A stretch of 64,000 bases of DNA, taken from the IMG/VR virus record IMGVR_UViG_3300025066_000017. One strand, 5' to 3'. A model generated the notes under the pieces. It saw nothing but the letters and a program-made list of their open reading frames with translations, did not search any database and was not told the origin of the DNA. A program made the translations under genes and the position numbers. This document shows, piece after piece, positions 5,584 through 63,800 of this stretch (its first letter is position 1; each line of letters starts with the position of its first letter). This stretch comes from a virus (Duplodnaviria; Heunggongvirae; Uroviricota; Caudoviricetes).

Positions 5584-5602
5584 ATCTTTAGAGTCTAAAG
5601 AT
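5584..5602. promoter_or_regulatory. Conserved palindrome ATCTTTAGA(G)TCTAAAGAT, copy 1
   Basis: Exact 9-1-9 palindrome. Lies 7 nt upstream of the start of gene 5272-5577 and downstream of gene 5604-6341. Confidence 0.7.
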
Positions 5603-5603
5603 T

Positions 5604-6341
5604 TTACAAATTCAGTTTCGAGTAAATATTCTCCAAGTCATCCGCAATGTACCCACTCGCTTCGTCATCTTCTTCGCGTAAATCTGTAACTCGGGAATCC
5701 AACAACTCACGTAACAAATCGCGCTCTCGTCCCGTTAGCAGATCAAACTGAAGTTCTTTGATAGAACCAATCATTAATCGAGAATAGGAAAACCACAGCT
5801 TTTTCTCTGATTGAGTTAGCTCCCTAAAGTGTCGAGTATCCTCTAACTCTTCCCCTAATGCTTCCTGATAAGCTTCCACCCAATTATTCTGCAGTAGACG
5901 AGCTATTCGATACTTCTGAGACTCAATAATGAAATCCAAACGATCGGGATTCTCCAATACAAATCTGTGATCCTTTGGAAAATTCTCTCGAGGAGGCATA
6001 TCCGACAAAGGATGATTGCCTCGCTCATCCACAAGCCCACAAACATCACATTCATGAACAGTGCTTGCATGAACAGTGCTTGCAGGTCTTAAATTTATAT
6101 CGTGTCTCGTGCAAAGCATTGCTCCACGAGGGCACTCTCTACAAGGATAGGGAGATTGGACCGAACTATACCTCTTCGGATCAGACGTCTCTCCGGTATT
6201 ACCATCATCCACATGCCGCAGAAGCTCAGATTTCCCACCCCCACCACAACTACTACACACCCCCGTCATAATAACGTTATCTGATGTCCGTTTCTCAAAG
6301 CCACACTCGCACTTGAAAATATTACTCACAGAAACCTCCAC
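5604..6341 (-). CDS. Hypothetical Cys-rich protein (Zn-ribbon-like N-terminus)
   Basis: FKCECGF...CSSCGGGG...CRECPRGAMLCTRHD...CDVCG. Contains an in-frame 15-nt tandem duplication (HASTVHASTVH). C-terminal half is acidic and helical. Confidence 0.45.
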   Translation of the reverse strand: MEVSVSNIFKCECGFEKRTSDNVIMTGVCSSCGGGGKSELLRHVDDGNTGETSDPKRYSSVQSPYPCRECPRGAMLCTRHDINLRPASTVHASTVHECDVCGLVDERGNHPLSDMPPRENFPKDHRFVLENPDRLDFIIESQKYRIARLLQNNWVEAYQEALGEELEDTRHFRELTQSEKKLWFSYSRLMIGSIKELQFDLLTGRERDLLRELLDSRVTDLREEDDEASGYIADDLENIYSKLNL

Positions 6342-7745: not shown

Positions 7746-8066
7746 CTATCCGTAACGTTGTTCATCTAAAAGATCTTCAAAACAGTCAACCAAACTATCT
7801 AATCCAGCAGTCCACGCTTCTTTTACTTTTCTATGCCCACCCGAACCAAACATCGCAGTCAGTCCCATACTCTCTCTCAAGGACCCAAATAACTCCTGCA
7901 ACGCAATCATCTTCTCATCTACTACACGATCCCACTCCTCCCCAAAATTCTCTCGAATCTCTCCCCACAACACACCCACATGAAAAATGAATGCACCATC
8001 CTTATCTGGCTCACCCAATAAAGATAAAATTTGTTCAAGACTATTTTCCAAACTCACCGTATCCAT
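7746..8066 (-). CDS. Hypothetical protein (first gene of the minus-strand accessory operon)
   Basis: 106-aa ORF. The palindromic motif (variant) lies upstream at 8125-8143. Confidence 0.4.
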   Translation of the reverse strand: MDTVSLENSLEQILSLLGEPDKDGAFIFHVGVLWGEIRENFGEEWDRVVDEKMIALQELFGSLRESMGLTAMFGSGGHRKVKEAWTAGLDSLVDCFEDLLDEQRYG

Positions 8067-9912
8067 ACAAATTCTCCTTTTGTCTTTTTCAAATCAGTAA
8101 AAACACAACTCTTTCATTAACTTCTAAATAAAAAAACTTTAGAGTCTAAAGATTCAACCCAAAAACCAACAAGAGCAGGAACACTCCTCCCAAAAAACAA
8201 TAATCCCCACCGATCTCTAAAAGATCACATCACCCCAAACACTAAAACATCTACCCTCAAACACCACTGCCACAAACAACTAAAGCTAAAATAACCACCC
8301 ACTAAAGCCCCGTTTTATCAAACACCCCTAAAGACCCATGGTTTTATTAACTTGACGCTTCTCATATCCCCAATCTAGAGTCGTCCTCATTGTTGTTATG
8401 TTTGGTAGATGCTTCCCAAAAAAAATCAGCACCCCTCGGATAGGGCGACCCCGGCTTAAACGAAAAAAGCCACCCTAGAGTATGGCAGCTTCTTTCTAGT
8501 TGCTTGTACAAAACCTAACCGAGTAAAGAAAGGAAGCACAAACTACCCGAACAAGATTAGAGTAAGGAGATCGACAAGAAATGTCAAATGTTTTCTTCAA
8601 CTCTGCAAACTCCCTTGCAGAGCCACTTCTCTCTTGCAATGAGAAAGAAATGATGAAGAATACAAATCTCTACAACACTTCTCGCAAAAATCCTCTCCCG
8701 GATGAGAAGGACCCTACCGTTCGATTTGGACCGAATGTATTTCATTGCGACTCTAACCTTGAACAACAATACCACCTAATCCCCACTACCCCCCACCAAT
8801 CATGCAATGACAACGACTCCACCCGCGTGGCCAAAATTGGAGTCAACTATCCAATTGCACATTTCTCTACGATTCTCCAAAAGCAACACTTCATTGGCGA
8901 AGCGCTGCGGAAAATTATACGGCAATTGCATAATGGGCAACTGAGAGGCCCACCCCTCCGATTCTGCAGTACCTCCTACAAAATGACCCTTGCCCCCCGA
9001 GGTCCAGAGACAACAAACAGTTATTCTCCAACAGGCAACACCACACCGTCACCCACATCACATAAACTTTTGTCCTCCAGAAGAAAACCAAACCACGGTG
9101 CGAACAAAAGTAACACCAATACCTCTTCTAGAGCGTTATGTGATCGCATGACACCGAACAACCACCCTGCTTGTGGACGAACGTATCTGCAGACGCCCTC
9201 TGGTAAAAAAAACTGCACACTTATGGGGAAACCACAACTCTGCAAAGAGTTGCTACATAGATAAGGGAACAAGTAACAAAGTGGCTCTTTTTTCGATTAC
9301 ACACGAGAATGATAACGAACTAGACACAAAACAAGTTCGCCCTCATACCTCACCATCCCTAAAAAGACACCCACTCTGATTGTCAGTCTTTGAGTTTCTT
9401 TGGTCATTTCTTCTCCGATAGGTCGTGAAACTCCTCCGGGAGTTACCCCCCAAATCCTATCCTACAAGCTCCTGACAACACCTCTTCAAAACTTATCGAA
9501 CTATCCCGATAGCACAGCACCCGATCTGTACCTCTTTTTTTGCACTGCACCACGAACAGATCAACACCCCCTTTGGCCTTGTATTGGTTGTACCAATCAA
9601 CCCATACGCCTAGCTGAAATCAAGAAGAGAAAACACAACACTAAAACTAGTTTCTCACATAAGTCAGAATCACCTTAAGTCATCCTTAACTTAAATTATC
9701 CCTGCCTTATTTCTTAACTAGTTCTAATCTCCCCTCCCATCAATTCTCTTCTTCTGATTAATTATTCTAATTTAAAATTTAGTGTTTTTTATCAGTTCTG
9801 CTCGGCCTCTCGCTTCGCTCTCTCTATTTCACGCCAAAAAGGGGGGAGTGCGTCTTCTGGATTCCTTGCATTTCGACCTTTTTAGTATTTTTAGACCGGG
9901 CTCAATCAGACC
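8067..9912. other. About 1.8 kb non-coding, strongly A+C-skewed (G-poor) tract between the divergent minus-strand (122-8066) and plus-strand (9913-15291) gene blocks
   Basis: No convincing ORF. Track ORFs here (8581-9264 and others) have non-protein-like N/S/T/P/H composition. The plus strand is nearly devoid of G over long stretches, for example 8160-8340. Contains degenerate half-sites of the palindrome (tctagagtc at about 8376; tctaaaagatc at about 8216) and the AT-rich leader of the + operon. Confidence 0.5.
8125..8143. promoter_or_regulatory. Palindrome variant AACTTTAGAGTCTAAAGAT, copy 2
   Basis: Upstream of the first minus-strand gene (7746-8066), at the edge of the non-coding tract. 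Confidence 0.65.
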
Positions 9913-10479
9913 ATGATGATAAATCGAAAACAAAGAGACGATGATACTATCACCCACATCCTGGCTATTAGTTTCAAGAGAGACAGTGAAACAGAAAGAA
10001 ACTTAAACATGATCCTCCAAGATGGTCCGTACAAAGACTGGGGGGATATGTTTATGAATTTGGCAGAGCTTGCCTTTTTCATTATCGACCGTAGAAAAAA
10101 TGGATATAAATTCTACCTAAGAGAGATTGGTCCCAATCAACCCTTTGTGGAGATACGCCAGCTTCCTGGTCCAGATCCCGATATAGAAAATCTCTTTAGA
10201 CAAGAAGAAGAGACTGATATAAAATTGCTCGACTTTGTTTATAAAGATGATGTGGGTAGAGAGAAATCTCTTTTATCGTTATCCAAGGATGATGAAGACA
10301 ATCCTGTGAATGAGCCTATGCCGGATGGACTATCTCAAGACATAGGTTCACCCGAGAATCTTCTTCTTCAGATCGATCCAGAAACGTTGCTAGGTATGAA
10401 GATATCGTTAGATCTTTCCTGGTATGAAAGAATCTGGTTCAGTTTTCGGCTCATGGTAAAAATAATCTTTAGACTCTAA
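9913..10479 (+). CDS. Hypothetical protein
   Basis: 188-aa ORF, first gene of the plus-strand block. Its stop codon lies inside a palindromic motif copy (10465-10483). Confidence 0.45.
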   Translation: MMINRKQRDDDTITHILAISFKRDSETERNLNMILQDGPYKDWGDMFMNLAELAFFIIDRRKNGYKFYLREIGPNQPFVEIRQLPGPDPDIENLFRQEEETDIKLLDFVYKDDVGREKSLLSLSKDDEDNPVNEPMPDGLSQDIGSPENLLLQIDPETLLGMKISLDLSWYERIWFSFRLMVKIIFRL

Positions 10480-10483
10480 AGAT
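10465..10483. promoter_or_regulatory. Palindrome ATCTTTAGACTCTAAAGAT, copy 3
   Basis: Overlaps the stop of gene 9913-10479. Lies 28 nt upstream of the ATG at 10512. Confidence 0.7.
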
Positions 10484-10511
10484 TATAAAATTCAACATTG
10501 GAGTATGTTCT

Positions 10512-10889
10512 ATGAAACTGATAATGGGTAAAGATTCCATCCAGAAAATGGATGATTGCGTAAAGCTGACAACCCTCAAGAATCATGCGGACTTCATTGG
10601 CACTTCCTGTGCAGTAATGGAGTTCATTGTTCTTCGTCAAGAAGAAGGGTGTCGGCTATGCATTCAAACTCCTCGTGGAGACATCTTGCCTGTGGAGGGA
10701 CTTCCTAAAAATTTATCTTGGAAAAAATCTGGGAAGAGAGAAAGAACTCTTTCAGTTTTTGATAATGTTATCGAGGTTTCTTTTGGCGAAAGTTCTTGTC
10801 TTGAGGTTGAACCAGTTCCGACAAAAACAAGTTGGTGGGTTTATGTTACTAATTGGCTTAGGAAAATATTTAGCCTCAAGAGCAAATAA
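10512..10889 (+). CDS. Hypothetical protein
   Basis: 125-aa ORF. GGAG Shine-Dalgarno-like sequence 8 nt upstream. Preceded by the palindrome. Confidence 0.4.
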   Translation: MKLIMGKDSIQKMDDCVKLTTLKNHADFIGTSCAVMEFIVLRQEEGCRLCIQTPRGDILPVEGLPKNLSWKKSGKRERTLSVFDNVIEVSFGESSCLEVEPVPTKTSWWVYVTNWLRKIFSLKSK

Positions 10890-12283: not shown

Positions 12284-12765
12284 GCACCCGGATGCGAAAT
12301 GTTTCTTTGGGCTTCACAGAAGATGGATATTCATTATCAGGCAAGATATTCAAGGATCATTTCCATAACATACTTTTAGGCTTACATGCTATTGCGCGAT
12401 CATTTAAAGATGAAGATTGTGAGAAGAGTCTTTTTGGTAAAAAAACTTATTGCTTGCCATGCCCAACAACAAAAGAACAATGGGAGAAAATATTAGAAGT
12501 ATCAGAAAATGTTGCAACAGAGTGCGCAGGGATTATTTTATTTGTATCTGGAATAAGTGGAATTGATTGCTATGTCTTCTTAGACAAAGACTCAATAAGA
12601 GAATGTTTAGATGCCTCGGTATTTGAATCTCTTCATCATAACAATACGGAAACTGTATTTTTAGATCATCATAGAATTATCCCCAACACCATGTGCCCGT
12701 CTTGTAAACATAAATTTCATAGTGATAATCCAATAGATTTTGTTTCTATTCTTTTATCTTCTTAA
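12280..12765 (+). CDS. Hypothetical protein
   Basis: 161-aa ORF with a 4-nt overlap with the upstream gene. Confidence 0.45.
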   Translation: MSTRMRNVSLGFTEDGYSLSGKIFKDHFHNILLGLHAIARSFKDEDCEKSLFGKKTYCLPCPTTKEQWEKILEVSENVATECAGIILFVSGISGIDCYVFLDKDSIRECLDASVFESLHHNNTETVFLDHHRIIPNTMCPSCKHKFHSDNPIDFVSILLSS

Positions 12766-13059
12766 TTATCGCCTCTCATCCATATCCATCTCGCTCTCCT
12801 CTTCAATCTCAATTATCCCCTCCTCACTCTCTTCTGTAGGTAAACAAAAAAAGGTCGCCAACATCCTCCCTTGTCTTAACCTTAGTGAAATCAAGTCTTC
12901 CTTCTCCAATCCCATCTCTTCTGCTCTTACCCAAATTCTAGAAACCGCGTTACGTCGGCTTTCTCGTTTTCTTTTCCTCTGTTGGCGTCTATATCTCTTT
13001 CTTTCTGCAGGGCTTTGGTTTTGCTGTATCCATTCCCAGGTTTCGTTTCTTTTGGCCAT
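12766..13059 (-). CDS. Possible small protein with basic N-terminus and acidic C-terminus (lone minus-strand ORF in plus block)
   Basis: 97-aa ORF: RKRYRRQQRKRKRESRRN ... EESEEGIIEIEEESEMDMDERR. It is more protein-like than the overlapping plus-strand low-complexity ORF 12740-13099, but neither is certain. Confidence 0.3.
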   Translation of the reverse strand: MAKRNETWEWIQQNQSPAERKRYRRQQRKRKRESRRNAVSRIWVRAEEMGLEKEDLISLRLRQGRMLATFFCLPTEESEEGIIEIEEESEMDMDERR

Positions 13060-13091
13060 TTCAAAACTCCGAAAAAAAAATGAAGACGTAA

Positions 13092-13110
13092 ATCTTTAGA
13101 CTCTAAAGAT
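13092..13110. promoter_or_regulatory. Palindrome copy 4
   Basis: Lies between gene 12280-12765 (and the minus ORF 12766-13059) and the gene at 13270. Confidence 0.7.
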
Positions 13111-13269
13111 TTTGACAAAAACATCTTCTAAAAACAAGAGGAAATCAAAGGAAGAATGATGAAAGAAGAGACACAGGCGAAACAATCCCAATTTGAATGG
13201 ATTCAATTATCTTTCTAGATTTCAATCGAGAACTAGCCTAATTTTTTCTACTTACAGAGGAACTATCTC

Positions 13270-13755
13270 ATGAGAAAAGCTTTACCAGATCGAATTAGAA
13301 ACATCCTAAACCACCCCACCATCAGATTTGTTATTGATGCAATGGATGAAAATTTTGACAACGATCGCATCGGGGACTTATATCGTGAACTAAGCTCCAT
13401 TGCCAATGATGTCGAAGAGGAACTGGGAAAAAGAAGTCGTCGAAGAAGTCGAGTCAAAGAGGCATCTACGGCGACTGTTGACGTAATCGAAGATAATGAT
13501 AAAATTCTATCATCCCACGGAGTAGCAAGACTTCTACAAGTTAGCCCCTCCGCAGTCATTTCTTGGATTGACTCGGAAAAGCTTGATGGTTTTCGCACAA
13601 GTGGTGGCCACCGTCGCGTAAAAACAAGCAATCTTATCCTATTTCTCAAAGAACAAAACATGCCCATCCCCGCCGCTCTCATTGATACTGATGTCGACAT
13701 TAGCGTTGATACTCGTATCGACCTTAATGAGGATAAAGCACCACGACAACAATAA
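13270..13755 (+). CDS. DNA-binding protein with excisionase/MerR-type helix-turn-helix domain
   Basis: LSSHGVARLLQVSPSAVISWIDSEKLDGFRTSGGHRRVKTSNLILFL resembles the excisionase-family HTH (...lgvs..ti.r....g.lpa.k.Gr.wri....l..fl). Confidence 0.55.
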   Translation: MRKALPDRIRNILNHPTIRFVIDAMDENFDNDRIGDLYRELSSIANDVEEELGKRSRRRSRVKEASTATVDVIEDNDKILSSHGVARLLQVSPSAVISWIDSEKLDGFRTSGGHRRVKTSNLILFLKEQNMPIPAALIDTDVDISVDTRIDLNEDKAPRQQ

Positions 13756-18709: not shown

Positions 18710-18735
18710 GATTTATAGCCTTGTTATAAGTAAAA

Positions 18736-18754
18736 ATCTTTAGACTCTAAAGAT
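18736..18754. promoter_or_regulatory. Palindrome copy 5
   Basis: 26 nt upstream of the ATG (18709) of the beta-helix tailspike gene. Flanked by A5/T5 runs, giving a 27-bp extended palindrome. Confidence 0.7.
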
Positions 18755-18791
18755 TTTTGTTTTACTGAGTAGAGAACATCAAACAGACATT

Positions 18792-23291: not shown

Positions 23292-23328
23292 AAACTCTTT
23301 ATCAAATAGACGAGGTGAATTATTCCAA

Positions 23329-23347
23329 ATCTTTAGACTCTAAAGAT
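23329..23347. promoter_or_regulatory. Palindrome copy 6
   Basis: About 38 nt upstream of the start of gene 21438-23291. Confidence 0.7.
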
Positions 23348-23422
23348 TTAAACGAAAAGAGGACCAGCAACCATGTGTTGCGGTCCTCTAGAGTATCACG
23401 TCTTTAATAAGAGTTGGCTACT

Positions 23423-24911: not shown

Positions 24912-25514
24912 CTAGCTTGGTGCGATGATCCACGCAAATTCAAATGTTGGATCCTCGGCCATCTGCGCAAATTCTATATAGCCTGATTCTGCATGAGTAA
25001 AAGCAAAAGTGTGCAAGAGGTCCCATATGCCTGGAGAACTCTCATAATAGAGAGAGTATACATCCTTAACTCGTTTCAATCTAAGTTGGGAAGATGTCGC
25101 AGTATTATCCTGGGATAGATATCCCCGTACCACCTCACCATGAGTAAAGAGACGCTGCTGAAAAAATAAATTCCCATCTGCTTTAAGTAGAGCAATTACA
25201 TCTACACCATTCAATGGGACTGCTCCGGGAGATGTTTCGCGCAAACTTCTCCACCCCAAATACACCGCTAATGATGCCTCTACTAAAGGTGAGATCGGAC
25301 CATAGCTGATTTTTACATCAAAATCTAATCCTGCAGGAATGCTAACTTTTCCCTTAGAATCCACAAAGAAAGCATCGCCTTCATTTTCAACACCTGAGAC
25401 AAATAGACCCGGCGATGGAGTCCCAGAAACGTAAGAAGCATTTCCAGCGCTCGTCACATTCCACATGTCCGAATCAATCGAACTTGATACAAAATCATCA
25501 TTTACTACTGGCAT
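24912..25514 (-). CDS. Hypothetical tail-fibre-associated protein (position analogous to fibre assembly protein)
   Basis: 200-aa ORF immediately downstream of the 990-aa fibre gene. Palindrome variant at 25530-25548 upstream. Confidence 0.4.
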   Translation of the reverse strand: MPVVNDDFVSSSIDSDMWNVTSAGNASYVSGTPSPGLFVSGVENEGDAFFVDSKGKVSIPAGLDFDVKISYGPISPLVEASLAVYLGWRSLRETSPGAVPLNGVDVIALLKADGNLFFQQRLFTHGEVVRGYLSQDNTATSSQLRLKRVKDVYSLYYESSPGIWDLLHTFAFTHAESGYIEFAQMAEDPTFEFAWIIAPS

Positions 25515-25529
25515 AGGATTCCTCTTAAA

Positions 25530-25548
25530 TTCTTTAGACTCTAAAGAT
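25530..25548. promoter_or_regulatory. Palindrome variant TTCTTTAGACTCTAAAGAT, copy 7
   Basis: Between the stop of the 990-aa fibre gene and the start of gene 24912-25514. Confidence 0.65.
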
Positions 25549-39288: not shown

Positions 39289-39292
39289 TAAA

Positions 39293-39311: not shown

Positions 39312-39373
39312 TCAATCCGGAAATATGGAAGAAAGACTAACCAGAATGAATTCTTTAGACCCCAAAGATATAT

Positions 39374-42486: not shown

Positions 42487-42608
42487 TCGCCCGCATCAAA
42501 ATAACAGGCGGATTTGATCAAAAATGACCAACTCGCGAAGATCATTTCTAGATCTTCAATTATGCATTCAAGCTATGGGAAAAAAAGAATCCCGTCAAGA
42601 AATAACGA

Positions 42609-42627
42609 AATCTTTAGACTCTAAAGT
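42609..42627. promoter_or_regulatory. Palindrome variant ATCTTTAGACTCTAAAGTT, copy 11
   Basis: Between the sheath stop (42743) and tube start (42486). Confidence 0.65.
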
Positions 42628-42742
42628 TTTATTTTCCGCACCTGCAATGAAAATAAACTTTAATAAGCAAAGCCCCTATTAAAGTTCTAAGGAGAAAAAC
42701 TTAATAAGGGCTTTGTGCGAACAGATTCTAATATTTTGTTGG

Positions 42743-45613: not shown

Positions 45614-45813
45614 TGCATTTCCCTATCTTATAGAACTTCTTCGCGAAAGCTGAGGGCACTCTTATAGTTGATGTGAGACTACACAAAAGCCACTTCGCTT
45701 TCAATTTATCAGATTCTTGTGCATAAAAGTAATTTACATAAAAAAATACACTCCCCCATAGAGACTTTCCTTCTCTCCCAATTTATTTGCAGCGTTTTGG
45801 GGGTTGTCGAAAA

Positions 45814-45832
45814 ATCTTTAGACTCTAAAGAT
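45814..45832. promoter_or_regulatory. Palindrome copy 12
   Basis: About 200 nt upstream of the sheath ATG (45613), downstream of gene 45905-46840. Confidence 0.7.
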
Positions 45833-45904
45833 TTTCTTTGAGAAAAAAGCAACTCTCTTTAGAGAAATGTACAAAATCGATCTTATCAAAATACAGAGAT
45901 AATG

Positions 45905-53000: not shown

Positions 53001-53888
53001 CATGCCTCCAAACTCTTCTCCATATACTTTTTTCCATCTCTCCTGGAAGCCATCTGTAAATTGTTCACGCTGCAGTCTGTTGGGACCGCTTCCTCGGAAA
53101 CCTTCAAATGTGGCTGCGAGTCTAATTGTTGCGGCATCTACTGCTCTGAACTCATAGGGGCGACCATATGTGTCTGGAGTGATTTCGGCGCATGCCTGAT
53201 CTAGCGTAAGTGAGTCTGTGGTGAATTTTCTAAGAAAAGTCTCAAAGTCATCTCGTGGGTAGGGAGAGTATGGGTTGGGTCCAAATCCACACGCCATAAT
53301 CATTTGCTCGAGTCTTCGAATCTGTTCCTTTTCTTCATCAGATGGTTGATGTCCATCGTCCTTGAATCGGATTTGAAATCCGACCTGCTTGTTTTCTCTA
53401 TAGGGTTGGGCGAAGGCTGCGACTTGGTTGACTCGTGTCGTGATAATGGAAGCGATGATAGGCACCTGCTTCACAATGGCGCGTAGGGCGTCAAAGGACA
53501 CCGAGAAGCGACGTTCTCTATATCCGGCAGAGTACATGAGTGTCAGAGGGTCGAAGAATCGCGTGCGTGGCCCTCTCGCAGGAACCATTCCACTGGGAAG
53601 AGACTTGTATGCGTCCGGGCCTTGTCTATACATACTGGGAGACATTTGGGTTGATGGAGTGATAATACTGCTTTGTTGTTCTGCGGCATTGTGAGTAGCC
53701 AGAACATTCCCTGTTCCTACAGGGACTCCATTATTTTTTACCTCACTCCCTTTTGCTCCATGCACTCCACCATGATAATGATCTTGAAAAAAAGCATTCG
53801 GTGAAGAAGATACAGTTTGCTCCTGCATCATCAACATCGAATCTTCTTGACCCATAGCTCTGTTTTTCAACCAACTATTTATACTCAT
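50022..53888 (-). CDS. Portal-like protein precursor containing two inteins (extein about 624 aa)
   Basis: Two Cys-initiated Hint segments. Each has a ...SPDHKF(L/R)... block and ends in (G)I(V/L)(I/L)SN followed by Ser. No Walker A motif in the exteins, which argues against terminase. Position upstream of the head genes. Confidence 0.55.
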   Translation of the reverse strand: MSINSWLKNRAMGQEDSMLMMQEQTVSSSPNAFFQDHYHGGVHGAKGSEVKNNGVPVGTGNVLATHNAAEQQSSIITPSTQMSPSMYRQGPDAYKSLPSGMVPARGPRTRFFDPLTLMYSAGYRERRFSVSFDALRAIVKQVPIIASIITTRVNQVAAFAQPYRENKQVGFQIRFKDDGHQPSDEEKEQIRRLEQMIMACGFGPNPYSPYPRDDFETFLRKFTTDSLTLDQACAEITPDTYGRPYEFRAVDAATIRLAATFEGFRGSGPNRLQREQFTDGFQERWKKVYGEEFGGMTSDQVFSIQLLHGRIENIFSYNDLAFCVRNPETNIWNNGYGTSELEKALNAVLGMLWGEIYNRAFFKQGCVGEDTRVFTDEGVFYIKDLPVNPDVEFSPIGNVWNGSRWVPFDVVSTGQKETIRTTLDDGFEIHTSPDHKFLALTDSGEILMRPIAEIQEGDFVARSLEVAPIELPESLIYIRNKNIPKPLLKRMAKHLEEHCDISSLFFEERTLLLKLANFADDSSQELCSRDEIIEICQKLDCWDFLEELSYQWIRVSSIEDMEEMRPMYDVRIKDSSHQWSCGGVILSNSAPKGLINIKGDEISEAQMESFRRAWYAMIAGVENCLHGDTTIWTREEGMVSLENYIEGTEEKEATIWTGKEWASGLVYRTKEQKQLCRLKLACGLEIKSSPDHKFRVLGGGDGLPVWKRLEDLQEGDYVLVNKQSPQNPDNIPHCNGKQVTPDLMEVLGWAVGDGYFSDKGMLCFYHHEKEREIRERHLSILKDFDPAARLKDIHITPEEQEKIKERYGFKSVASERLQIVLNNVNFARWLKEVGFQFSSEGKNVPPFVYTLPNELKFAFLRGLFSADGHIGDGRFVAITITNDSLRQEVKWLLSSVGIRTNLSEGKQKIVIDGPLRYYEEKESLLRIKDKDYFYENIGFLQDHKQPDDLVNPNEANKHSRVSPRTTYFFARKIQKKNKEANYELLTLRERLDLNAIIRGDDGCSLPRILRFLEKVNITPPNWLLEYHFSPISEIEITTDFVDMFDVSINTDLHAFAANGIVISNSFRTPILQAEQMEYIDLQHTNREMEFQSWLEYLIRQVCASYLIDPSEVGFDLTSGGGSGGAPVFESKHEWKIKHSRDKGLRPLLRFISKQITKYIVDPLDSRLYFDFVGLDELSERERVELLNMKMSAFMTLNEGRASEGLPPRPDGNVILNPAWIQARTLLEEEGQMLPDPSEEQMAYMTAGENEIPGYGQAKPVPLYMQTNPDRNKIPPLGGVPDPNDPNQM
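50697..52019 (-). mobile_element. Intein 2 with LAGLIDADG homing endonuclease (about 441 aa: CLHGDTTIW ... ANGIVISN | S)
   Basis: aa 624-1064 of the same ORF. Two LAGLIDADG-type motifs (LGWAVGDGYF, LRGLFSADGHIGDG) lie between the Hint halves. Confidence 0.55.
52125..52793 (-). mobile_element. Intein 1 (mini-intein, about 223 aa: CVGEDTRVF ... MYDVRIKDSSHQWSCGGVILSN | S)
   Basis: Coordinates computed from aa 366-588 of ORF 50022-53888. N-terminal splicing block C-x-G-x-T, TSPDHKFLAL block and C-terminal block ending SN+S. Confidence 0.5.
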
Positions 53889-53938
53889 TATATAAAAACT
53901 CGCCTATAGGTTATGTAGAAGATAAACCATCTTTGAAA

Positions 53939-53957
53939 ATCTTTAGACTCTAAAGAT
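53939..53957. promoter_or_regulatory. Palindrome copy 13
   Basis: About 50 nt upstream of the portal ATG (53888). Confidence 0.7.
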
Positions 53958-54019
53958 TTTGTACAAACTTTATTGTTTTTTTAGCAGTGTTGTAAAGAAT
54001 AAGTTTTGGGAAGAGAGAA

Positions 54020-55571: not shown

Positions 55572-56120
55572 TTACTTGCTATCAACAGACTCCGGAACAG
55601 GAACCTCTGGCAATACAGGCACTGCCACCAGATCTAAAGCCTCCACAATGACCGAATCCGAAGCGCTACCATCTTCGGAAACCACCCGAATTTCTTGACT
55701 TATAGGAATTGTTTCGACCATTGGGTTATCAAACCCAGCGCCGAAGTCTTCTTCTGTGATGGGGCTCTGATTCGCAGTTCCATTCTCAACGACCGAAACC
55801 GCTCCATCATCTCCAACCTCAATCCTCCCCACCGGCTGTGTCTTCCCAAATGAATAAACAAGATTATCTTCGCCTTGCTTCTCAGGAAGAGCAAAGTCTC
55901 CCAAACGAGCCCTTTGTCTGCGTATTTCTCTGTTTTGTCTTCGCATCTGACGGGCTATCCGAGAATCCACTGGAGGACTATCTGGAGCCGCGTTCGGATC
56001 TATATTGGGAGCGTTCTCTTTTTTCTTCTGTTCCTCTTCAAAACTCTCCAGACGTGGCGGTCTAATCGCCATCGATCTTGGAACACTCATCGTCATGCTG
56101 TCACGCTCAGATCGTCGCAT
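55572..56120 (-). CDS. Hypothetical virion-module protein
   Basis: 182-aa ORF co-transcribed with the SOD gene (43-nt gap, no palindrome between them). Palindrome at 56152-56170 about 30 nt upstream. Confidence 0.4.
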   Translation of the reverse strand: MRRSERDSMTMSVPRSMAIRPPRLESFEEEQKKKENAPNIDPNAAPDSPPVDSRIARQMRRQNREIRRQRARLGDFALPEKQGEDNLVYSFGKTQPVGRIEVGDDGAVSVVENGTANQSPITEEDFGAGFDNPMVETIPISQEIRVVSEDGSASDSVIVEALDLVAVPVLPEVPVPESVDSK

Positions 56121-56151
56121 TTCTATAATCTCCTTCGATAGTTCTAATGAA

Positions 56152-56170
56152 ATCTTTAGAGTCTAAAGAT
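56152..56170. promoter_or_regulatory. Palindrome copy 14
   Basis: About 30 nt upstream of the start of gene 55572-56120. Confidence 0.7.
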
Positions 56171-56241
56171 TTTTCCTTTGCTTCTGTGTAAGTGTAAACG
56201 GTATTGCAAAAAAAGAAACATATTTCTTTGCAATAAAATAT

Positions 56242-57753
56242 CTATACCACACTCAAAGAAATACCATAGTAGTGTCGTTTCAACTGGTGCTCCAATAATT
56301 CAAGTCTTTCTTTATAGTCTTTAATCGTCGCAGAATACACACCATAACTAGCCGAAGATGTAAATGTAACTGACTGCGAGACACCACCCTTTGAAAAAGA
56401 TTGACCCGCAATACCACCACGAAAAGCTTGACCTAAAACAGGCAGCGCCTTTACAGCCGCTCTCATTCCAATGCAATCCAAGATGGGTGTCGGTGTTTCC
56501 CTGCTTTCTATTCCAGCCCAGTATCGAAGTCTCCAGAAAGAAGGAATCTCAACAGATCCTCGCAACGACCCTATATGAATGAGACCAAGATAAGAGAACG
56601 CGGTGCTGTGATTAAAGGGCATAATCTGCAAAAAATTGTGTGCATCAAAGTGAACCCAAGACAAGTTTATATCAATAACCCGTGTCCCCCCCACAGCGCC
56701 TATAAGATAGTCGAACTTGATAGGGTGACAATAGGGCAAGCGAAGGCGCAACCAGTGCGCCCCAGACGCGGGGAAATAAGATATAGGCTTGGACTTCAAG
56801 TCATAGTCGAAGTTCTGGGGTATTGCTGGAAGAGGTTGGGAGCCACTTGTGGTACTGGATTGTAATGTTGTCAGATCATCATCCGTAACAACCAAAGAAG
56901 GTTCAATGGGTGTCTTGAGAAGTTCCTTCTCCATCCAGTCACACTCTGCATCAATCCACTCTCGCAAAGTCTTTCTCTGGAACTTCTTTTTGTCAATAAT
57001 GAGATTCTCTGTGGCGTCTACTGCAGGCACAAGCCTTGGATTCACTCGAACAGTAATAAAGCTCTGCTGGTCTTGTGCTAATAGAACGTACTCCTTATTA
57101 AGTCCTCCCGGTAAGCTTGTATCAATTGGGATAGTTGTCCCACCCCAAGATAATGAAGGCATGGGAGGAGTTTGACCATCATAAACGAGATTTAAACGAT
57201 GCATCCCCATTGGATGATTTTTCGAAACCTCACTAACCACCACACCTGCAATTGCCGAAGGCTGCGTTCGACACATTCTATCATCATTGCTCTGTCTAGT
57301 CGCTCCCTCCAACCACCTCCTCTCAAAGGCTTCCGTTGTCATTAAACAAACGCGAAAAGTTTCGGAACCCTTCTCTAAGACAGACGTATCGTGCGTTACC
57401 TTTATAAAATAACTCCCCCTCCGCAGCATCGGAAACGGCTTTGTCGCAGAATAGACAATCTCCCGAATGTCCCACGTCAGTTGTTGTCCACCATTAGGCA
57501 CCTGACCCGCAAAAGTAAATGTTTTTCGGGACTGCACAATCTCCTCTAAATCTCCTCGACGCTTCTTCCAAAGAGATACCGTTATAGCTTCCCCAACATT
57601 TGTTGCGTCATTTGGAGTAGGTATAATATTGACTGTCAGTGTCTCGCGACCATCTTCATTTCGACAGAACTCATGCACTCCATCAAAAGGCAAGGTCGAA
57701 CCTGTGTCTATCGGGGGTGGTTCTATATATACTTGCAGATCTGTAAGGGCCAT
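56242..57753 (-). CDS. Hypothetical virion structural protein
   Basis: 503-aa ORF. Palindrome at 57777-57795 upstream. Confidence 0.45.
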   Translation of the reverse strand: MALTDLQVYIEPPPIDTGSTLPFDGVHEFCRNEDGRETLTVNIIPTPNDATNVGEAITVSLWKKRRGDLEEIVQSRKTFTFAGQVPNGGQQLTWDIREIVYSATKPFPMLRRGSYFIKVTHDTSVLEKGSETFRVCLMTTEAFERRWLEGATRQSNDDRMCRTQPSAIAGVVVSEVSKNHPMGMHRLNLVYDGQTPPMPSLSWGGTTIPIDTSLPGGLNKEYVLLAQDQQSFITVRVNPRLVPAVDATENLIIDKKKFQRKTLREWIDAECDWMEKELLKTPIEPSLVVTDDDLTTLQSSTTSGSQPLPAIPQNFDYDLKSKPISYFPASGAHWLRLRLPYCHPIKFDYLIGAVGGTRVIDINLSWVHFDAHNFLQIMPFNHSTAFSYLGLIHIGSLRGSVEIPSFWRLRYWAGIESRETPTPILDCIGMRAAVKALPVLGQAFRGGIAGQSFSKGGVSQSVTFTSSASYGVYSATIKDYKERLELLEHQLKRHYYGISLSVV

Positions 57754-57776
57754 TATCCTGCCACCTCTTTGAGGAA

Positions 57777-57795
57777 ATCTTTAGACTCTAAAGAT
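57777..57795. promoter_or_regulatory. Palindrome copy 15
   Basis: About 24 nt upstream of the ATG of gene 56242-57753, downstream of the giant ORF stop (57848). Confidence 0.7.
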
Positions 57796-57847
57796 TCTGT
57801 TTTTACAGATGACAGAATAACGGCTTATTCTCTTTGTGCAAAACTAT

Positions 57848-60800
57848 TTATTTATGTATCGGAACAAAACAAAGAGGACCAGTAGACTTTTCTATTGAAA
57901 CATTTTCTTGCTCAAAAGAAACACCAATGGATTTTAGAAATCCATCCATTCCACCATCTCCCCAACCGTTCGACTCTTCTCCGGAGTTTGAAATAAAATC
58001 TACCACTTCTTGTTCTGGTCCAGGATCTGATATCCCATGGTCATCAGGACTCCCCGGCTGATAATACTCGTCTCCTCGAGTAAACTGCCAAACACCCACA
58101 CCTTCTTCCGGCGTCTCTTGCTGCATAGGCGATGGTTGCGGAGGCTCTGGCTCTGCAGGGGCTGGTCCTTCTATAAAGACAGGCTGGCCTCCCATTTGTC
58201 GATAATGACCAATATCACCCTGCTCACCAACCTCTTGGCCTCCAGGCATAGGATCTCCCATAGCCTTCTCCATCGGTGTTATCACGAGAGGACCTTTAGC
58301 GCCCAATACAGAATCTGGATCTTTATCATCATTATCTATGGAAACACTTTTGTTAGAAAGATCATCTTCTTCAATGTTTTCTTCATTGCCAGATACATTC
58401 ACACCATACTCTGCCAAATCATCCACCATGTCCCCGCCTAGCCAGTTTGCAAAATCGGGCATTTCTGCTTGAGAGTCGGAAACTTCTGCTTGAGAGTCGG
58501 AAATTTCTTTGATTCTCTGAGTTTCTTGTTTGCGTGACTCCTCGAGACTGGCCGCTTGGTCTGGGGGCAACATATTGTGTTCAATTTGAGCATCCTGAAT
58601 CAGCTTGCCCAATTTTTGCCGTTTTTCTTCTGGATCGTCGATCTTTCCAAGAATTGTGTGCCATGCAAATGGCATAGTATCAGGCTCTCGAAGAAGATCT
58701 TCTGCCTTCCAACTTCCTTTTCCTAGATGTCTTAGTACTTTCTTTACACCATGCCTTGCCTTGGTTTGTGATAGTTCTTTTTGTGTTTCCTCTTCCTCCT
58801 TTTTCTCCCGTTCGACTCTTTCTCCATCTGCTATTGCAGTTTCTGTGTACTCTTCATCCCCAGTTCGATCAGTCAAGCCTAAGACTTTCTCAACTATGCC
58901 TTGTTTCTTTTTTTGTTTCTTTTCTTTTTCGACTCTTTCTCCATCTGCTATTGCAGTTTCTGTGTACTCTTCATCCCCAGTTCGATCAGTCAAGCCTAAG
59001 ACTCTCTCAACTATGCCTTGTTTCTTTTTTTGTTTCTTTTTTTGTTTCTTTTCTTTTTCGACTCTTTCTCCATCTGCTATTGCAGTTTCTGTGTACTCTT
59101 CATCCCCAGTTCGATCAGTCAAGCCTAAGGCTCTCTCACCCCAGCTCTGCTTCTTCTTCTTTTGAGTCGGAGCAACTTCTTCTTCTGCGGAAACATCTTC
59201 GTTTCTCATTCCTGTATCCTCTGCTTGTTCTTCGGGCAACTCTGGAAGATCTGGCAACTCTTCACCAGTAAATAATTCCGGGAAACGTTGTTGTAGTTCG
59301 CTCTGATAATGAGAAGCTGCCTTGTATTGTGGATCTATATCACGTCCAAACTGTTGTGCCTGTCGCACAAAATCTTGCGCAATTCCTTTTGGATGCCAAT
59401 TACCCATATCGTAATTATCATCCAAATATTCTTGCAGACGATGTCCCGAAGAACCTTCCTTATGCAAACCCTTTAGACGAGACTCTAGATTTCGAACCAT
59501 TGTTCCGTATGCAGATCTGTATGCGTCTTTTCCTAATGTCCTTTGTAATCTTTTACCATGATCCCTAAAAATCGATTTATTCTTATCTAAAAGATCAAAC
59601 GCCTCACTATGAGTTCCTTGAGCAGCCTCGAAGATTTCTGGATTCTCTCCCATTCCTGCCAATGCATTTTGTATTGGATGAGAATGGTCGTTTACAACGC
59701 GGAAAGATGGTGGCGTTTTTTCTTTGGGAGCCTCTCCCGCGTTCTCATCAAAAAGATTAGAATCCGGAGTCTGGTTAGAGTCGGGAGTCTGATTCTCTTG
59801 ATTCAGTTTTTCTCCTGTTCTTTGGCTTCGATAAGATCTGTTCCCAGTTATTAACTCAGATGCATCCGATATAAAGGCGGTTGCATCATCAAATAAACCA
59901 CCTTCTCCCGAAGCCTTTGCTTCTTTCATCCTTTTACGAGACTCTCTTCTTGAAGATTCTTTCAAGAGCTTTCGTATATTTGATGGGTAGTCACCGTGTA
60001 GAGCATCTTCACCAAATGCACTTATCAATGGACCAAAAAGCGACCTACCCAAACGCACAACTTCTTCCTCTTGATCTGGACCTATATCTTGTCCCAATAG
60101 ATGGGACAGGGCTTCTGCGTGCTCTTGGTTGTAAGCTTGATCAAAAGCTTTCATTGTAGAACCATGAAAAAGTCTATCAGACAATCTACGTAGCCATGGT
60201 GAGTCTTCTGATTGCTCTCTAAACTCGTCCATATACCCTTTTAGCTTTTGGCTATGTCGGAGGAACTTTCTGGCTCTATTAAGCGTTGCACTATTGTTTT
60301 TCTTTTTCTTTGCTTGTTTTGCCTGGGGTTGAATTTGAAGGGCACCCTTCGTTCCCGGAGCATTGCTTTCTGTGCTTTCTATGGGTTGGCTCGGAGAAGC
60401 ATCATCTTCTTGATAGTCTTCTTCTTGATAATCATCTTCTTGTTGATCATCTTCTTGATAATCATCTTCTTGTTGATCATCTTCTTGTTGATCATCTTCT
60501 TGATAATCTTCTTCTTGATAATCATCTTCTTGTTGATCATCTTCTTGATAATCATCTTCTTGTTGATCATCTTCTTGTTGATCATCTTCTTGATAATCTT
60601 CTTCTTGATAATCTTCTTCTTGATAATCTTCTGTATCTATATCCGAAGACTCTGCTCTAGGCTCACTCTTCGCAGAGTCAACTTGAACACCTTCATCAGT
60701 ATCCTCGCTCTGGGTTTCCTGCGTGTCTTTATCAAACTCCGCAGTCCCCTCTCTCTCCTCTCTCGAAGATAAGAACTCGTCATCTCTCTCTCGTCGAGAA

Positions 60801-63800
60801 CGACTTTGTTTACGATATTCACTCAAACGAGAGCGATTTTGCTCTAGATGGGCATCTAGAGCAAAATCGTCATCGCCCCCTACTCCAGGACCTTCTCCTA
60901 GTTGTTTGAATATTTCTTCTAGTTGAGAACGGTGCTCTTCATCACCAACGCCAGAGAGATGATCAAAGATTCGATCTTCTGTTTGTCTAAAGGCCGGATC
61001 ATGCTCGGCTCGTAAATTTTCTAATCGTGAGAGGTGATGCTTGAACTTTTCTCCTCTGCTCATGTATCGAGTTTCTTCAGGCTCGCTACCTAAGTCTGCA
61101 CTTCCCCCTAAACTCTCTCCAGTTAAGACAGAGAATATCGGGCTCTGCATATAGTTTTGTAGAATTTGACCGTGCTTTTCCAATTCCTCTCTAAGAGAAG
61201 CCGGTGCTGTGTTCGGAAGAAGCTGCTGCAATAGGTGTGTCGTATGTTCCTTTTCGCGAATATTCTTCACATGCTCGATAGCACTATCTACCAAGTGTTG
61301 TTCATTTGCCGCCGACAATTCTTGCATAACAGGATGATCGTCCGAGAGCCCTGGTGTGGACGCTTCATGCGAGAGCCCTGGTGTGGGCGCTTCATGTTTT
61401 TTAATATCCTCTATAGTTTGGGACAGATCCTTGAAAGCAAACTCTTGTTTTCCTGTGTCTTTGTTGTCCTCTTTTTGATCTAACTGGTCCTTAGCAGATG
61501 ATTCTTCACCTACTTCATTTTGTTGAGCATTATGTCCACGTTTATATGTTTCGGGATTTCTTCTTAATGTGCTTTTGAATTTACGAAGCTTTGTTCGAAG
61601 TTGCCCCATATCCGAATGATATTTCTCTAGTTCTTCGGGGCTAGGAGCTTCTTCTGATTCAGACCATTCGTTCGCACGATCCTCTAAATCAGAAAGACCA
61701 TCTCTTATATCTCTTGGAAAATGATCTGTTGCAATAGGACTTCCATCCGAATGACGTAACCCTTCCTTTAGAAACTTAAATTTCTCCAGGTTCATATCCC
61801 TTTGAATAGACCTATCTTCATCATTACCTATATGTCGTTCTGGTGAATCTATCTCAACATCTTCATATGACTTTGTTTCTGCTCCCTTTCTTCTAGGAAC
61901 TCTTGAAGCTTTTCCTCTAAGTTTAGATTCATTTCCATTATTGTCGCTTGCTTCATTGCCTATCAGTTTTTCGTCTTCAAAAACATCTTCTTCAATAGCA
62001 CCTTCGGAGGTATCTTCATCAAATCCTTCAGTATCCTCTTCTCCCGAATCTAGACCCAAGGCATCTTTTATAGCAAATTTGGTGTCTTGCCATTGCTTCC
62101 ATCTTGACTCCTTAGCCTCTGGGGAGTCTGTTGGCATGGATTGGACTTCTTCAAGTTGCTCCACTAGATCTTTATGCTCTGGGGCGTCTCCCAACGCCTC
62201 TGAGATGCTATTCGCCAGAGAAGTTATTGACTCGTGAGACTCGTCAGAGAGAACATCTTCAGTCTCTGGCTTCTCTGCGGGGAGAAGATTTTCCTTTATA
62301 TCCTCATCTGAAAGTTTCTCTGCAGATGCACCTGGATTGTAGAATCCTCTAAACTGTCTTGTTTCATTCTCGTTCCAATCTTTAGAGTCTAAAGATTCTT
62401 CACCATAAGAAGACGGTTGCTCTGCCGCTTGTAATATTTCTTTTATATCCTCCAAGTTTCTTGCTTCCATCGGATAAGAAGGTTCTTCTTCTTTCATCGA
62501 TGGAGACGATGCTTCCGTTTCTGGAGCAGATATTCTTTCTGTGGGGCTTGGAGTGTCTGTTGACGTCTCTTCGTCATCGCCCCAAGGATCCCCATCAAAA
62601 GGACTTTCGGATCCTGGACGACTAGAGACCTGTGTGTCTTCTTCGGGACGACTAGAGACCTGTGTGTCTTCTTCGGGACGTCTAGAGACCTGTGTGTCTT
62701 CTTCGGGACGTCTAGAGACCTGTGTATCTTCTTCTGGACGACTAGAGACCTGTGTGTCTTCTTCTGGACGACTAGAGACCTGTGTGTCTTCCTCTCTTGC
62801 TTTTATTTGAGGAGTTGGCGCGGTTCCTAGATTTGTTGGATTTGAAGATCCTGATAAACTATTCTGTGTTCTTATCATCAAGGCATTGTAATCTTTTTTT
62901 ATTTGATTAATTTCTTCTTGCGAAGCTCCTCTCTTCTCTGCTTCTTCTGTTTCTCTACGTAATGCTTGATGAAGGTCGCCCAAGATCTGAGTTTGATGAC
63001 TCACGTTATCCGAAGGAGCTTCATCTCGGTATAACCTATTATTCGATGGTTGCTCTCTTCTATCCTGTAATCTCTGTTTATTCCCATGCGCTTCTTTTAT
63101 TCTGCGCTTTAGCTCATTGCGCTGCTCAGTTGAAAAATCATCGGGATGCTCTAAATCTGTTTCTTCAAGAAGTCCATCTCTGAGATGTGACATCTCTTCA
63201 TGACTCATTTGTCCAGACTCGAGAAGAGATGCAATTTCTTTTGTTTCTGGAGCAGAAGCAAGAGCAGGATCCTTAGAATCTTCTCCTAATGGACTCTCCA
63301 TTACACCTGTATCCGCAAACGCAGAATTGTCCATCATATCCGTATCGGCAAACGCTCTAGGAGAAACGTCTTGTTCTTTTTGATCGACTAGGTTCCCTGG
63401 CATTCCATCATCAAAAAGCTTCGCATCATTCTCACTGAATCCTGCATTTTCTAAAACATCTGGATTTAGCTTCTTAAACTGATCCCATATTTTTTTATAT
63501 TCACCCATCTGTACCCGTTCAAATTGAGACAGACCTCCCTTCTCTTCCACAATCCTCTTGAATTCAGAAGCCACCCTTTCTACATTATCAAGGATTTCAC
63601 CTTGCTCCTCATCGAGACCCCCTTCACGAAGCCTCTCAAAATGAGAACTATCCATATCAAGAAAAGATTTCTCTTCTCCATCCAGCTTATCTACTGGATG
63701 GAAAAAATCATGCATTTGCGCTTCTTGTAAGTCTCTTTCGAGTTTAGCACCCGACGATCTTTTTGGTAGCGACCCATGATCAACAAAAGGCTGAAATTGT

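Follow-up and report, generated by a model that had tools for sequence, protein, structure and literature searches.

A 23-bp palindrome with an invariant core recurs between genes of an uncultured marine jumbo phage and may act as a stem-loop punctuation element

Conserved intergenic repeats are among the few handles available on regulation in uncultured phages. Here we describe an unusually clean case, the perfect 23-bp palindrome AAATCTTTAGA-S-TCTAAAGATTT, in a 64,000-nucleotide stretch of DNA (the window; IMG/VR record IMGVR_UViG_3300025066_000017) that is the structural module of a myovirus and belongs to an uncultured marine jumbo phage. We counted 69 copies in 213 kb of this genome, a density of one per 3 kb, and found them spread throughout it, the structural module included. 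Our leading interpretation, which we hold tentatively, is that the copies are genome-specific intergenic stem-loop cassettes, similar to the promoter-early stem-loops (PeSLs) of T4-type phages, that would serve as attenuators or insulators or as RNA-end elements and, in addition, as recombination joints. The functional statements made below about the palindrome are inferred from sequence alone, and these include transcription through every copy, an effect on termination or RNA stability, and a mechanism that homogenizes the copies.

Results

Copy number and geometry of the palindrome

Within the window, the 23-mer occurs 16 times at up to two mismatches (8 copies are exact, 2 differ at one position and 6 at two), while 100 shuffled versions of the window gave no match. 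Its 17-bp core, TCTTTAGA-S-TCTAAAGA, is present as 12 exact and 4 one-mismatch copies, with a degenerate two-mismatch copy at 39352-39368. These counts bear out a first-pass annotation of the same DNA, which had listed at least 16 copies plus a degenerate one and judged their recurrence to be beyond chance. The annotation had described the element as a 9-1-9 inverted repeat; the symmetric unit is instead 11-1-11 with an invariant 8-1-8 core. Positions ±1 to ±8 from the centre show almost no variation, at positions ±9 to ±12 A predominates on the left side and T on the right side, and the information content is limited to -12 to +12 with nothing conserved outside.

The element shows no orientation. 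Read in the sense of the flanking genes, the centre base was C in 22 copies, G in 27, A in 2 and T in 3, the flanks were symmetric, and neither centre nor flanks carried a signal relative to gene direction; the centre base was therefore rejected as an orientation marker. Additionally, no -35, -10 or T-tract is conserved around the copies (T frequency is 52% at +12 and 35% at +13), and a fixed downstream -10 or T-tract was rejected because none was found. Since all information lies within -12 to +12 and no orientation bias is seen, the element is self-contained and functionally symmetric. Isolated half-sites are not enriched (10 observed versus 9.1 expected). Doublets spaced 52–58 nt apart occur, some of which include one decayed copy. 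On each strand the motif carries TAG and TAA in two of the three frames and is open in one. Because only that frame is open, translation of the motif yields the SLDSKD/SLESKD peptides seen in spurious open reading frames (ORFs), as the first-pass annotation had noticed.

The palindrome is specific to one phage genome

Genes of the window include those for a sheath, baseplate J and a portal that carries both an intein and a LAGLIDADG domain, in addition to tail genes, a giant ORF and a gene for an Fe/Mn superoxide dismutase. The exact 19-mer was found in only two IMG/VR contigs. One, of 25 kb, is 97–99% identical to the window. The other, of 161 kb, encodes replication, nucleotide metabolism, the major head protein and the head protease, and the motif is the sole feature that it shares with the window, there being no DNA or protein similarity. 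We considered that two unrelated phages might share the motif and rejected this explanation, since segments matching each of the two sequences occur in a 129-kb metagenome contig, and the right end of the window is linked to the 161-kb contig by another contig, of 22.8 kb. From these bridging contigs, we conclude that a single jumbo-phage genome, at least ~220 kb in size, contains both sequences.

Searches among GenBank phages with the sheath protein, a 20-kb segment or the motif gave no useful match. A scan of 185,579 species genomes (one genome per species) returned just three single-copy matches of the motif, consistent with chance, which led us to reject a motif of host genomes. Thus, the motif is phage-specific and not a host signal. 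The identical 23-mer was also seen in three high-GC soil contigs (L084, L087 and L097), which were treated as unrelated; a single integrase-linked element is common to L087 and L097, each of which has one copy of the 23-mer, and L084 is 1 kb long.

Among its own genes the phage encodes RecA, SbcCD and RusA, several helix-turn-helix (HTH) proteins, including an HTH_17-like protein at window 13270-13755, an HU/IHF-like protein, and nucleases of GIY-YIG-like (T5orf172), HNH and LAGLIDADG type. Neither an integrase nor a repressor was seen in this phage.

Placement relative to genes

Copies of the palindrome avoid coding sequence. All window copies except that at 62376-62398, inside the giant ORF, lie outside long ORFs, as the first-pass annotation had reported, and the bias extends over the genome: ORFs of at least 100 aa cover 82% of the sequence yet contain only 9 of the 69 copies (P=3e-35), and 6 of these 9 are at ORF edges. 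The claim that copies mark nearly every operon boundary was overstated. In the window, a copy is present in 15 of the 33 gaps that measure 28 nt or more, and genome-wide in 30–55% of co-directional gaps of 25 nt or more. When junctions were classified using ORFs of at least 110 aa, a copy was present at 9 of 29 co-directional junctions with gaps of 25–60 nt, 11 of 20 with gaps of 60–150 nt and 11 of 22 with gaps of 150–400 nt, and at 6 of 16 divergent junctions. None was found at the 25 co-directional junctions with gaps below 10 nt. The annotation was correct that translationally coupled genes are never separated by a copy, yet this is trivial because a 23-bp element cannot fit in such gaps.

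In the window, the motif edge lies 13–48 nt from the next start codon in most cases; the distance is greater for gene 41920-42459 (~149 nt) and for the sheath gene (~199 nt). The earlier statement that copies typically stand upstream of starts therefore holds for the window, but not genome-wide, where copies are as often adjacent to stops. Among 49 tandem sites, the upstream stop is within 17 nt of the centre in 21, often being the arm's own TAG, whereas the downstream start is 24–45 nt from the centre in 19, with the Shine-Dalgarno (SD) sequence directly after the motif; overall, the motif is nearer the upstream stop in 30 of the 49 and nearer the downstream start in 19. Many short gaps consist of little beyond the motif and an SD sequence.

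Two contexts are explained only by a role at 3' ends or as an insulator. At L016:1236, convergent ORFs of 406 and 392 aa both stop at TAG codons of the arms, 3 nt apart, and the neighbouring divergent gap has no copy. Similarly, one copy begins 2 nt past the last gene of a 10-tRNA array.

Predicted folding of the copies

As RNA, the 23-mer folds into a 10-bp stem with a triloop at -6.7 kcal/mol, and at -8 to -10 kcal/mol when flanks are included. The consensus stem has two G-C pairs in ten, and beyond +12 there is no T-tract. A classical intrinsic terminator, with a G+C-rich stem and a U-tract of at least 5–7 nt, is excluded by this composition, in agreement with the first-pass view that the motif is not a GC-clamped terminator, and our terminator scan does not report the motif.

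The outer arm positions co-vary, yielding the pairs AGATC..GATCT, GAATC..GATTC, ATTTC..GAAAT and TAATC..GATTA (joint permutation p<5e-5). The covariation score was 0.134 versus 0.098±0.010, and was equalled by 1 of 500 shuffles. At some copies, unique flanks extend the stem: L006:2190 reads A8-GGG-[motif]-CCC-T9 and folds at -24.6 kcal/mol, and at L023:10048 unique complementary flanks build a 26-bp stem of -43 kcal/mol. No match to the palindrome was found among known RNA families in Rfam.

Divergence between strains and in related phages

To follow the element between strains, orthologous sites were compared between strain contigs that are 88–100% identical. In the flanks, 107 of 5782 positions changed (1.85%), compared with 3 of 354 (0.85%) in the outer arm (±9 to ±11) and 1 of 944 (0.11%) in the core (±1 to ±8). 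The core is thus conserved ~17-fold more than the flanks. The centre changed at 7 of 59 sites (11.9%), and seven of eight centre changes were complement flips (six C<->G and one A<->T). Flips of this kind are the mark of an inverted palindrome, of template switching or of ectopic conversion, and ordinary mutation does not produce such a pattern; the centre is neutral, and the arms are either constrained or homogenized. No presence/absence polymorphism was found at the orthologous sites, with no copy gained or lost between strains. One mosaic junction falls exactly at copy L016:4499, where 95% identity runs through the motif plus 4 nt and then gives way to unrelated sequence. Other strain indels are not at motifs.

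The first-pass annotation had suggested searching related phages for the same palindrome. It is not there: relatives with sheath proteins 44–49% identical lack the motif and carry their own intergenic palindromes instead. The syntenic gap upstream of the sheath gene in relatives contains a palindrome of different sequence, and the retention of a palindrome at this gap despite sequence turnover points to a retained function. The relatives' palindromes include TGTTCAAC-G-GTTGAACA, present in three copies, TGTTAG-N4-CTAACA, present in four to five copies with variable loops, CCATTAGA-A-TCTAATGG and ATCTTCAG-CTT-CTGAAGAT. Their loops are 1, 3 or 4 nt long and asymmetric.

Relatives' palindromes were also used as queries against viral contigs. 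CATTAGANTCTAATG proved too unspecific and TGTTAGNNNNCTAACA too short, while the TGTTCAACNGTTGAACA scan led to the unrelated high-GC viral contig IMGVR_UViG_3300012940_000092 (L131, L136; GC ~65%). This contig has six exact copies of a 23-bp palindrome, GGGTGTTCAAC-W-GTTGAACACCC, with A or T at the centre, at least two of which stand 15–16 nt upstream of an ATG with an SD sequence in between. The palindrome of L105, a relative with 48% GC, matches the 17-bp core of this palindrome exactly. The high-GC contig is an independent analogue and not a relative, which indicates that this architecture recurs independently.

A separate oriented repeat

A second repeat, GTAAATGCTCTGCTTTTTTATA..T.TGAA, occurs in ~40 copies in a small-ORF region of the 161-kb contig (L004, L022). 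Unlike the palindrome it is oriented: 33 of the 40 copies are on the minus strand, and most lie 45–60 nt upstream of an ATG with the SD sequence AAGGAGCTA; examples are L022:1231-1249(-) and L004:8072-8090(-). This repeat is probably the phage's early promoter family, judging from its sequence and placement. The palindrome stands 5–18 nt upstream of seven oriented repeats and 4 nt downstream of two. Thus 9 of the ~40 oriented GTAAATGCT...TATA repeats adjoin a palindrome at variable distance, and elsewhere the palindrome's flanks are without a conserved element. Because of this variable register, the palindrome would be a separate module and not the promoter itself.

The oriented-repeat region also has (AT)n runs and tandem repeats of the GGGGCTAGC type. 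Oriented repeat and palindrome together are nearly identical at L022:7804 and L022:8252 (both on the plus strand; L022:7790-7860 and 8240-8340). The same sequence also reads inverted around ORF 7877-8191; a repeat search reported no inverted pair of at least 25 nt.

Scans for sigma-70 promoters and canonical terminators showed no enrichment relative to shuffled sequence, and their matches did not fall on the motifs; both were rejected as explanations. The family matches listed for 218 ORFs include neither a phage RNA polymerase nor a clear sigma factor, and none was seen in the giant protein.

Individual copies in the window

Several window copies are bounded tightly by the genes around them. 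The exact copy at 5582-5604, with G at its centre on the plus strand, separates minus-strand genes 5604-6329 and 5272-5565; 11 nt lie between its centre and the upstream stop, and an SD sequence (GGAG) and then an ATG, 16 nt past the motif edge, follow. The exact copy at 34803-34825 occupies nearly the entire gap between 34826-37174 and 33744-34790, the SD sequence GGAG beginning 2 nt past the motif. Stop codons lie within the element at 13090-13112, an exact copy whose left-arm TAG ends plus-strand gene 12740-13099, and at 25528-25550, a copy with two outer mismatches whose arm contains the stop of minus-strand gene 25548-28520 and which is followed, 14 nt past its edge, by the ATG of 24912-25514. 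The HTH_17-like gene at 13270-13755 begins 158 nt past the edge of the copy at 13090-13112. The copy at 10463-10485, a symmetric outer variant (TAATC..GATTA), overlaps the end of plus-strand gene 9913-10479 and stands 26 nt before the ATG of 10512-10889.

Other copies lie farther from genes or beside other structures. That at 8133-8155 has two mismatches (AAAAC..GATTC) and is 67 nt upstream of the ATG of minus-strand gene 7746-8066. It lies in 8067-8580, a 514-nt divergent region between the minus- and plus-strand blocks that is without a credible ORF; this region holds one motif copy and several hairpins with T-runs, and may be a control region or a non-coding RNA gene. The exact copy at 18734-18756, between minus-strand genes 18792-21428 and 15875-18709, folds with its flanks at -9.3 kcal/mol. 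Upstream of minus-strand gene 21438-23288, the exact copy at 23327-23349 is directly preceded by a canonical GC-rich terminator hairpin with a U-run (23358-23389, minus strand), which is not a motif copy and ends ~5 nt before the palindrome; the two fold jointly at -31 kcal/mol (z = -6.4). Between baseplate genes 31007-32824 and 29307-30959, the copy at 30983-31005 reads in the sense direction as the variant GAATC..AAAGTTTT and lies within an extended A-run/T-run hairpin of -10.1 kcal/mol.

A variant copy at 39291-39313 precedes the ATG of the tape-measure-like gene (37177-39270) by 21 nt; centred 58 nt away, and 14 nt past the stop of 39374-39799, is the degenerate copy at 39349-39371 (two core mismatches). 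The one-mismatch copy at 42608-42630, whose centre is 124 nt past the sheath stop, has another hairpin upstream of it and TTGACG-17-TAGCTT 9 nt beyond it. Exact copies lie at 45812-45834, in the 291-nt gap that precedes the sheath gene (42743-45613), at 53937-53959, 48 nt upstream of the ATG of the portal gene (50022-53888), and at 56150-56172, upstream of gene 55572-56120, where the centre is G versus C in a 98.9%-identical strain contig. At 57775-57797, between the giant ORF and gene 56242-57753, the copy has one outer mismatch that forms a G-U pair in the sense direction. Lastly, the copy at 62376-62398 is in frame inside the giant ORF, where it encodes ESLDSKD, and is kept in all strain contigs.

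Discussion

We tentatively propose that the copies would be transcribed within polycistronic mRNA, as is evident where an arm holds a stop codon or an SD sequence directly follows, and that the RNA would form an AU-rich stem of 10–13 bp with a 3-nt loop. Transcription of either strand would give this hairpin, the DNA being perfectly palindromic, so that one sequence could serve both strands and convergent gene pairs. The hairpin would be a form of orientation-free punctuation: it could act on RNA polymerase as an attenuator or insulator, weak or leaky, or it could protect or process RNA ends and thereby divide transcripts into segments, or both, and a phage factor may read it. Its local strength would be set by GC clamps, T-runs or a neighbouring canonical terminator, and at points that require a new transcript, the hairpin would have a distinct oriented promoter module beside it. 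Recombination or gene conversion among copies likely keeps them identical, RecA, SbcCD and RusA being available in the phage; this would also explain the centre flips and would make the copies usable as joints for the exchange of gene cassettes. If copies are maintained in this way, palindromes would be drivers of modular exchange outside the T4 group.

The PeSLs (Arbiol et al. 2010, PMC2839356; Comeau et al. 2014, PMC4122927) resemble the palindrome in several respects. They are conserved intergenic stem-loops that recur at varying distances from an oriented promoter, itself conserved (PMC2839356, PMC4122927), they often begin at or after the upstream stop in an AT-rich context, a placement that the palindrome shares, and they have been proposed as terminators or attenuators between small genes and linked to mosaic and indel junctions. 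Typical of PeSLs, in addition, are a sigma-70-like early promoter that makes up one unit with the stem-loop and a concentration in hyperplastic regions. PeSL stems, however, are short G/C runs, whereas here the unit is a 23-bp perfect palindrome with an invariant 17-bp core. Unlike PeSLs, the palindrome spans both structural and replication modules, and most copies are without an adjacent promoter motif. By analogy, the best-fitting model would be the PeSL concept in a more extreme, genome-wide form. Similarity also exists to bidirectional intrinsic terminators, which share the symmetry of A-run, hairpin and T-run; L006:2190 and the window copy at 30983 sit at the apex of terminator-like structures. 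Terminator stems differ in that they vary from site to site, while the palindrome's stem is invariant, AU-rich and followed by only 3–4 T residues, which are themselves in the stem.

Several observations weigh against the stem-loop proposal. With -6.7 kcal/mol and no U-tract, the weak stem would be a poor intrinsic terminator for an E. coli-like polymerase. A 17-bp core that is invariant in ~70 copies exceeds what a purely structural hairpin needs, implying sequence-specific recognition or strong homogenization. The presence of copies at 4 of 23 convergent versus 6 of 16 divergent junctions is not the pattern of a dedicated terminator. At window 23338 and at L010:1254, canonical GC-rich terminators stand a few nucleotides upstream of copies, where a second terminator would be redundant, which hints at a role at the start of the next unit. 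Additionally, the excess of G-U-type over A-C-type pairs in the sense orientation (18 versus 9) is confounded by strand composition and alone is not significant (two-sided p ~0.12), and ORF calls were heuristic. Because the invariant core and the copies in divergent gaps are accounted for poorly, a sequence-specific reader, whether a dimeric DNA-binding or an RNA-hairpin-binding protein, is a serious alternative. An extension of this idea, which we consider unlikely, is that the ~70–80 hairpins form a private genome-wide punctuation code, with a phage-encoded sequence-specific reader, rapid co-evolution and lineage-specific palindromes as a result. Such a reader might bind the RNA hairpin and serve as an antiterminator, terminator or endonuclease, or it might bind cruciform or double-stranded DNA. 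If so, one switch would govern all transcription units and tell self from non-self nucleic acid. Recognition by a phage factor would also make the palindromes compact, portable and orthogonal punctuation signals and a model for the turnover of regulatory codes.

The first-pass annotation had favored an operator or a promoter element. Its picture of a phage-specific intergenic palindrome stands, and an operator is distinctly possible if somewhat on the unlikely side: a phage-encoded homodimeric DNA-binding protein would occupy ~70–80 sites as a global regulator or roadblock. The element would then be a symmetric counterpart of the stoperators of Cluster A phages and of the same kind as the 17-bp dyad-symmetric repeat TGTTCGGNNNCCGAACA of Cluster O mycobacteriophages, which occurs in >30 copies (PMC4351075). 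Cluster O repeats also number in the tens with near-invariant sequence, dyad symmetry and free central bases, and also lie largely in short intergenic gaps, with a minority in genes (~one third, versus ~5–13% here) and most unlinked to predicted promoters. Their authors favor a dimeric DNA-binding protein, and neither arm covariation nor stem extension is reported there (PMC4351075). In our phage, the invariant 8-1-8 dyad inside an 11-1-11 consensus, with any base at the centre, is typical of sites for helix-turn-helix dimers. The constraint on the core (1 of 944 positions, versus 1.85% in flanks), the lack of the motif in host-type genomes and the private palindrome of each relative, as co-evolution of site and protein predicts, all suit an operator, and the similar frequency of copies in tandem, divergent and convergent gaps suits a direction-independent role at the DNA level. 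The HTH proteins (HTH_17-like at 13270-13755) and the HU/IHF-like protein are, as cognate partners, candidates only. An operator would, in contrast, leave half-sites to vary independently and free of intra-strand pairing, and a homodimer has no need of the significant arm covariation, of GC-clamped extensions or of complementary unique flanks. The central spacing shifts among relatives (1, 3 or 4 nt) with asymmetric loops, half-sites are not enriched, and most copies lie in transcribed intercistronic space with an SD sequence right after, where a bound protein would block promoterless downstream genes. Covariation, GC-clamped extensions and the relatives' variable loops fit a hairpin-forming element better than a dimer operator. 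Stoperators themselves, like the start-associated sequences (SAS/ESAS) of Cluster K (both discussed in PMC4351075 and PMC3203893), resemble the palindrome in being many copies of one short motif in short intergenic spaces genome-wide, and many window copies share with SAS a position immediately before a start codon. Stoperators, however, are asymmetric, oriented with transcription and bound by a prophage repressor, while the palindrome is symmetric and unoriented; SAS are likewise asymmetric and tied to translation starts, while the palindrome stands beside stops as often as starts.

Quite unlikely, in our view, is a selfish or neutral palindromic repeat, of the repetitive extragenic palindromic (REP) or miniature inverted-repeat transposable element (MITE) kind or a target for a nuclease or recombination, tolerated between genes and promoting recombination and modular exchange. 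Such a repeat would account for an all-or-none unit in near-identical copies at one per 3 kb, for similar frequencies in all types of intergenic gap, for short gaps that look like motif plus SD sequence, as though 23–27 bp had been inserted, and for doublets 52–58 nt apart with the occasional decayed copy. The mosaic junction at a copy, the centre flips that point to palindrome-mediated template switching or ectopic conversion, and the GIY-YIG-like (T5orf172), HNH and LAGLIDADG nucleases also fit. Bacterial REP and REPIN elements (e.g. PMC3733652) are similarly high-copy extragenic palindromes, transcribed in operons, often just past stops and occasionally in doublets, and have been proposed to act in mRNA stabilization and termination. 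Unlike them, the element here is in a phage and not a cellular genome and is a shorter, perfect palindrome. It has no GTAG/CGTC head, and no RAYT, Y1 or IS200-type transposase family is among the Pfam matches listed for 218 ORFs. Moreover, strains differing by 1–10% show no presence/absence polymorphism, the core is conserved far above neutral flanks, and relatives keep a palindrome at the syntenic gap.

The remaining part of the first-pass proposal, a promoter, is very improbable, whether as an N4-type hairpin or cruciform, a site for a phage sigma factor or RNA polymerase, or a weak -10 made by the AAAAT edge of the motif. Most window copies do stand 13–48 nt before a start codon with only an SD sequence between, copies occur in 6 of 16 divergent gaps, and where canonical terminators come directly before a copy, a new transcript would need to start near the motif. 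In addition, TCTAAAGA agrees at six of eight positions with TATAAATA, the -10 element of T4 late promoters. The 3298-aa ORF adjoins the portal gene, and phage N4 packages a virion RNA polymerase of similar size. An N4-like virion polymerase in the giant ORF was nevertheless rejected, since Pfam, PHROGs and PDB sequence searches gave no signal, and no polymerase or sigma factor appears among the matches listed for the 218 ORFs. The hairpin of N4 type is oriented; here symmetry is perfect and the centre unbiased to gene direction, so that a promoter would fire equally into the upstream gene. There is no -35 or other conserved element, sigma-70-like matches are not above shuffles, and a distinct oriented promoter-like repeat is present. 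Copies also lie at a convergent junction with both stop codons inside, within some genes, 2 nt past the 10-tRNA array, and more often nearer the upstream stop (30 of 49) than the downstream start (19 of 49). Whichever explanation holds, fragments of this lineage in marine metagenomes can be binned by the motif, which marks them specifically.

Other features of the phage genome

Apart from the palindrome, the 161-kb contig (L023:33-2489 among the loci) encodes a full-length IF3 with N and C domains, an NYN-domain protein and the HU/IHF-like protein, together with the RNA-repair-type domains RlaP and HAD_SAK_2 and the 10-tRNA-gene array.

The minus-strand portal gene (50022-53888) contains a mobile insert that is polymorphic among strains, 669 bp at window 52126-52794 being missing from strain contigs L008 and L078. 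The giant ORF (57848-64000, minus strand) adjoins the portal and tail genes and continues as L024:10-9906, reaching 3298 aa in the 84-kb ENA contig L024. It has internal repeats in addition to its one in-frame motif copy. In the window its frame ends at 63988, where the sequence may differ from that of L024. By sequence searches only, the 3298-aa protein has no Pfam, PHROGs or PDB match.

Just upstream of the tape-measure-like gene, minus-strand ORFs 39811-40395 and 40262-41038 overlap by 134 nt and look like the usual tail-assembly-chaperone frameshift pair. Lastly, a ~50-nt non-coding element (GCTGYTNCTCTGGGCCAG...CCCACGG..GCCCCTCGGTAACGC) lies upstream of the tail-tube gene at window 41653-41701 (minus strand). 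It is also present at L100:5060-5110, L104:7640-7690, L105:6130-6180 and L101:8355-8405, and is thus kept in phages whose sheath proteins share just 44–49% identity. The element, which has no Rfam match, is a candidate new structured 5' untranslated region or small RNA, with a consensus fold of 17 pairs, 8 of which show compensatory changes.

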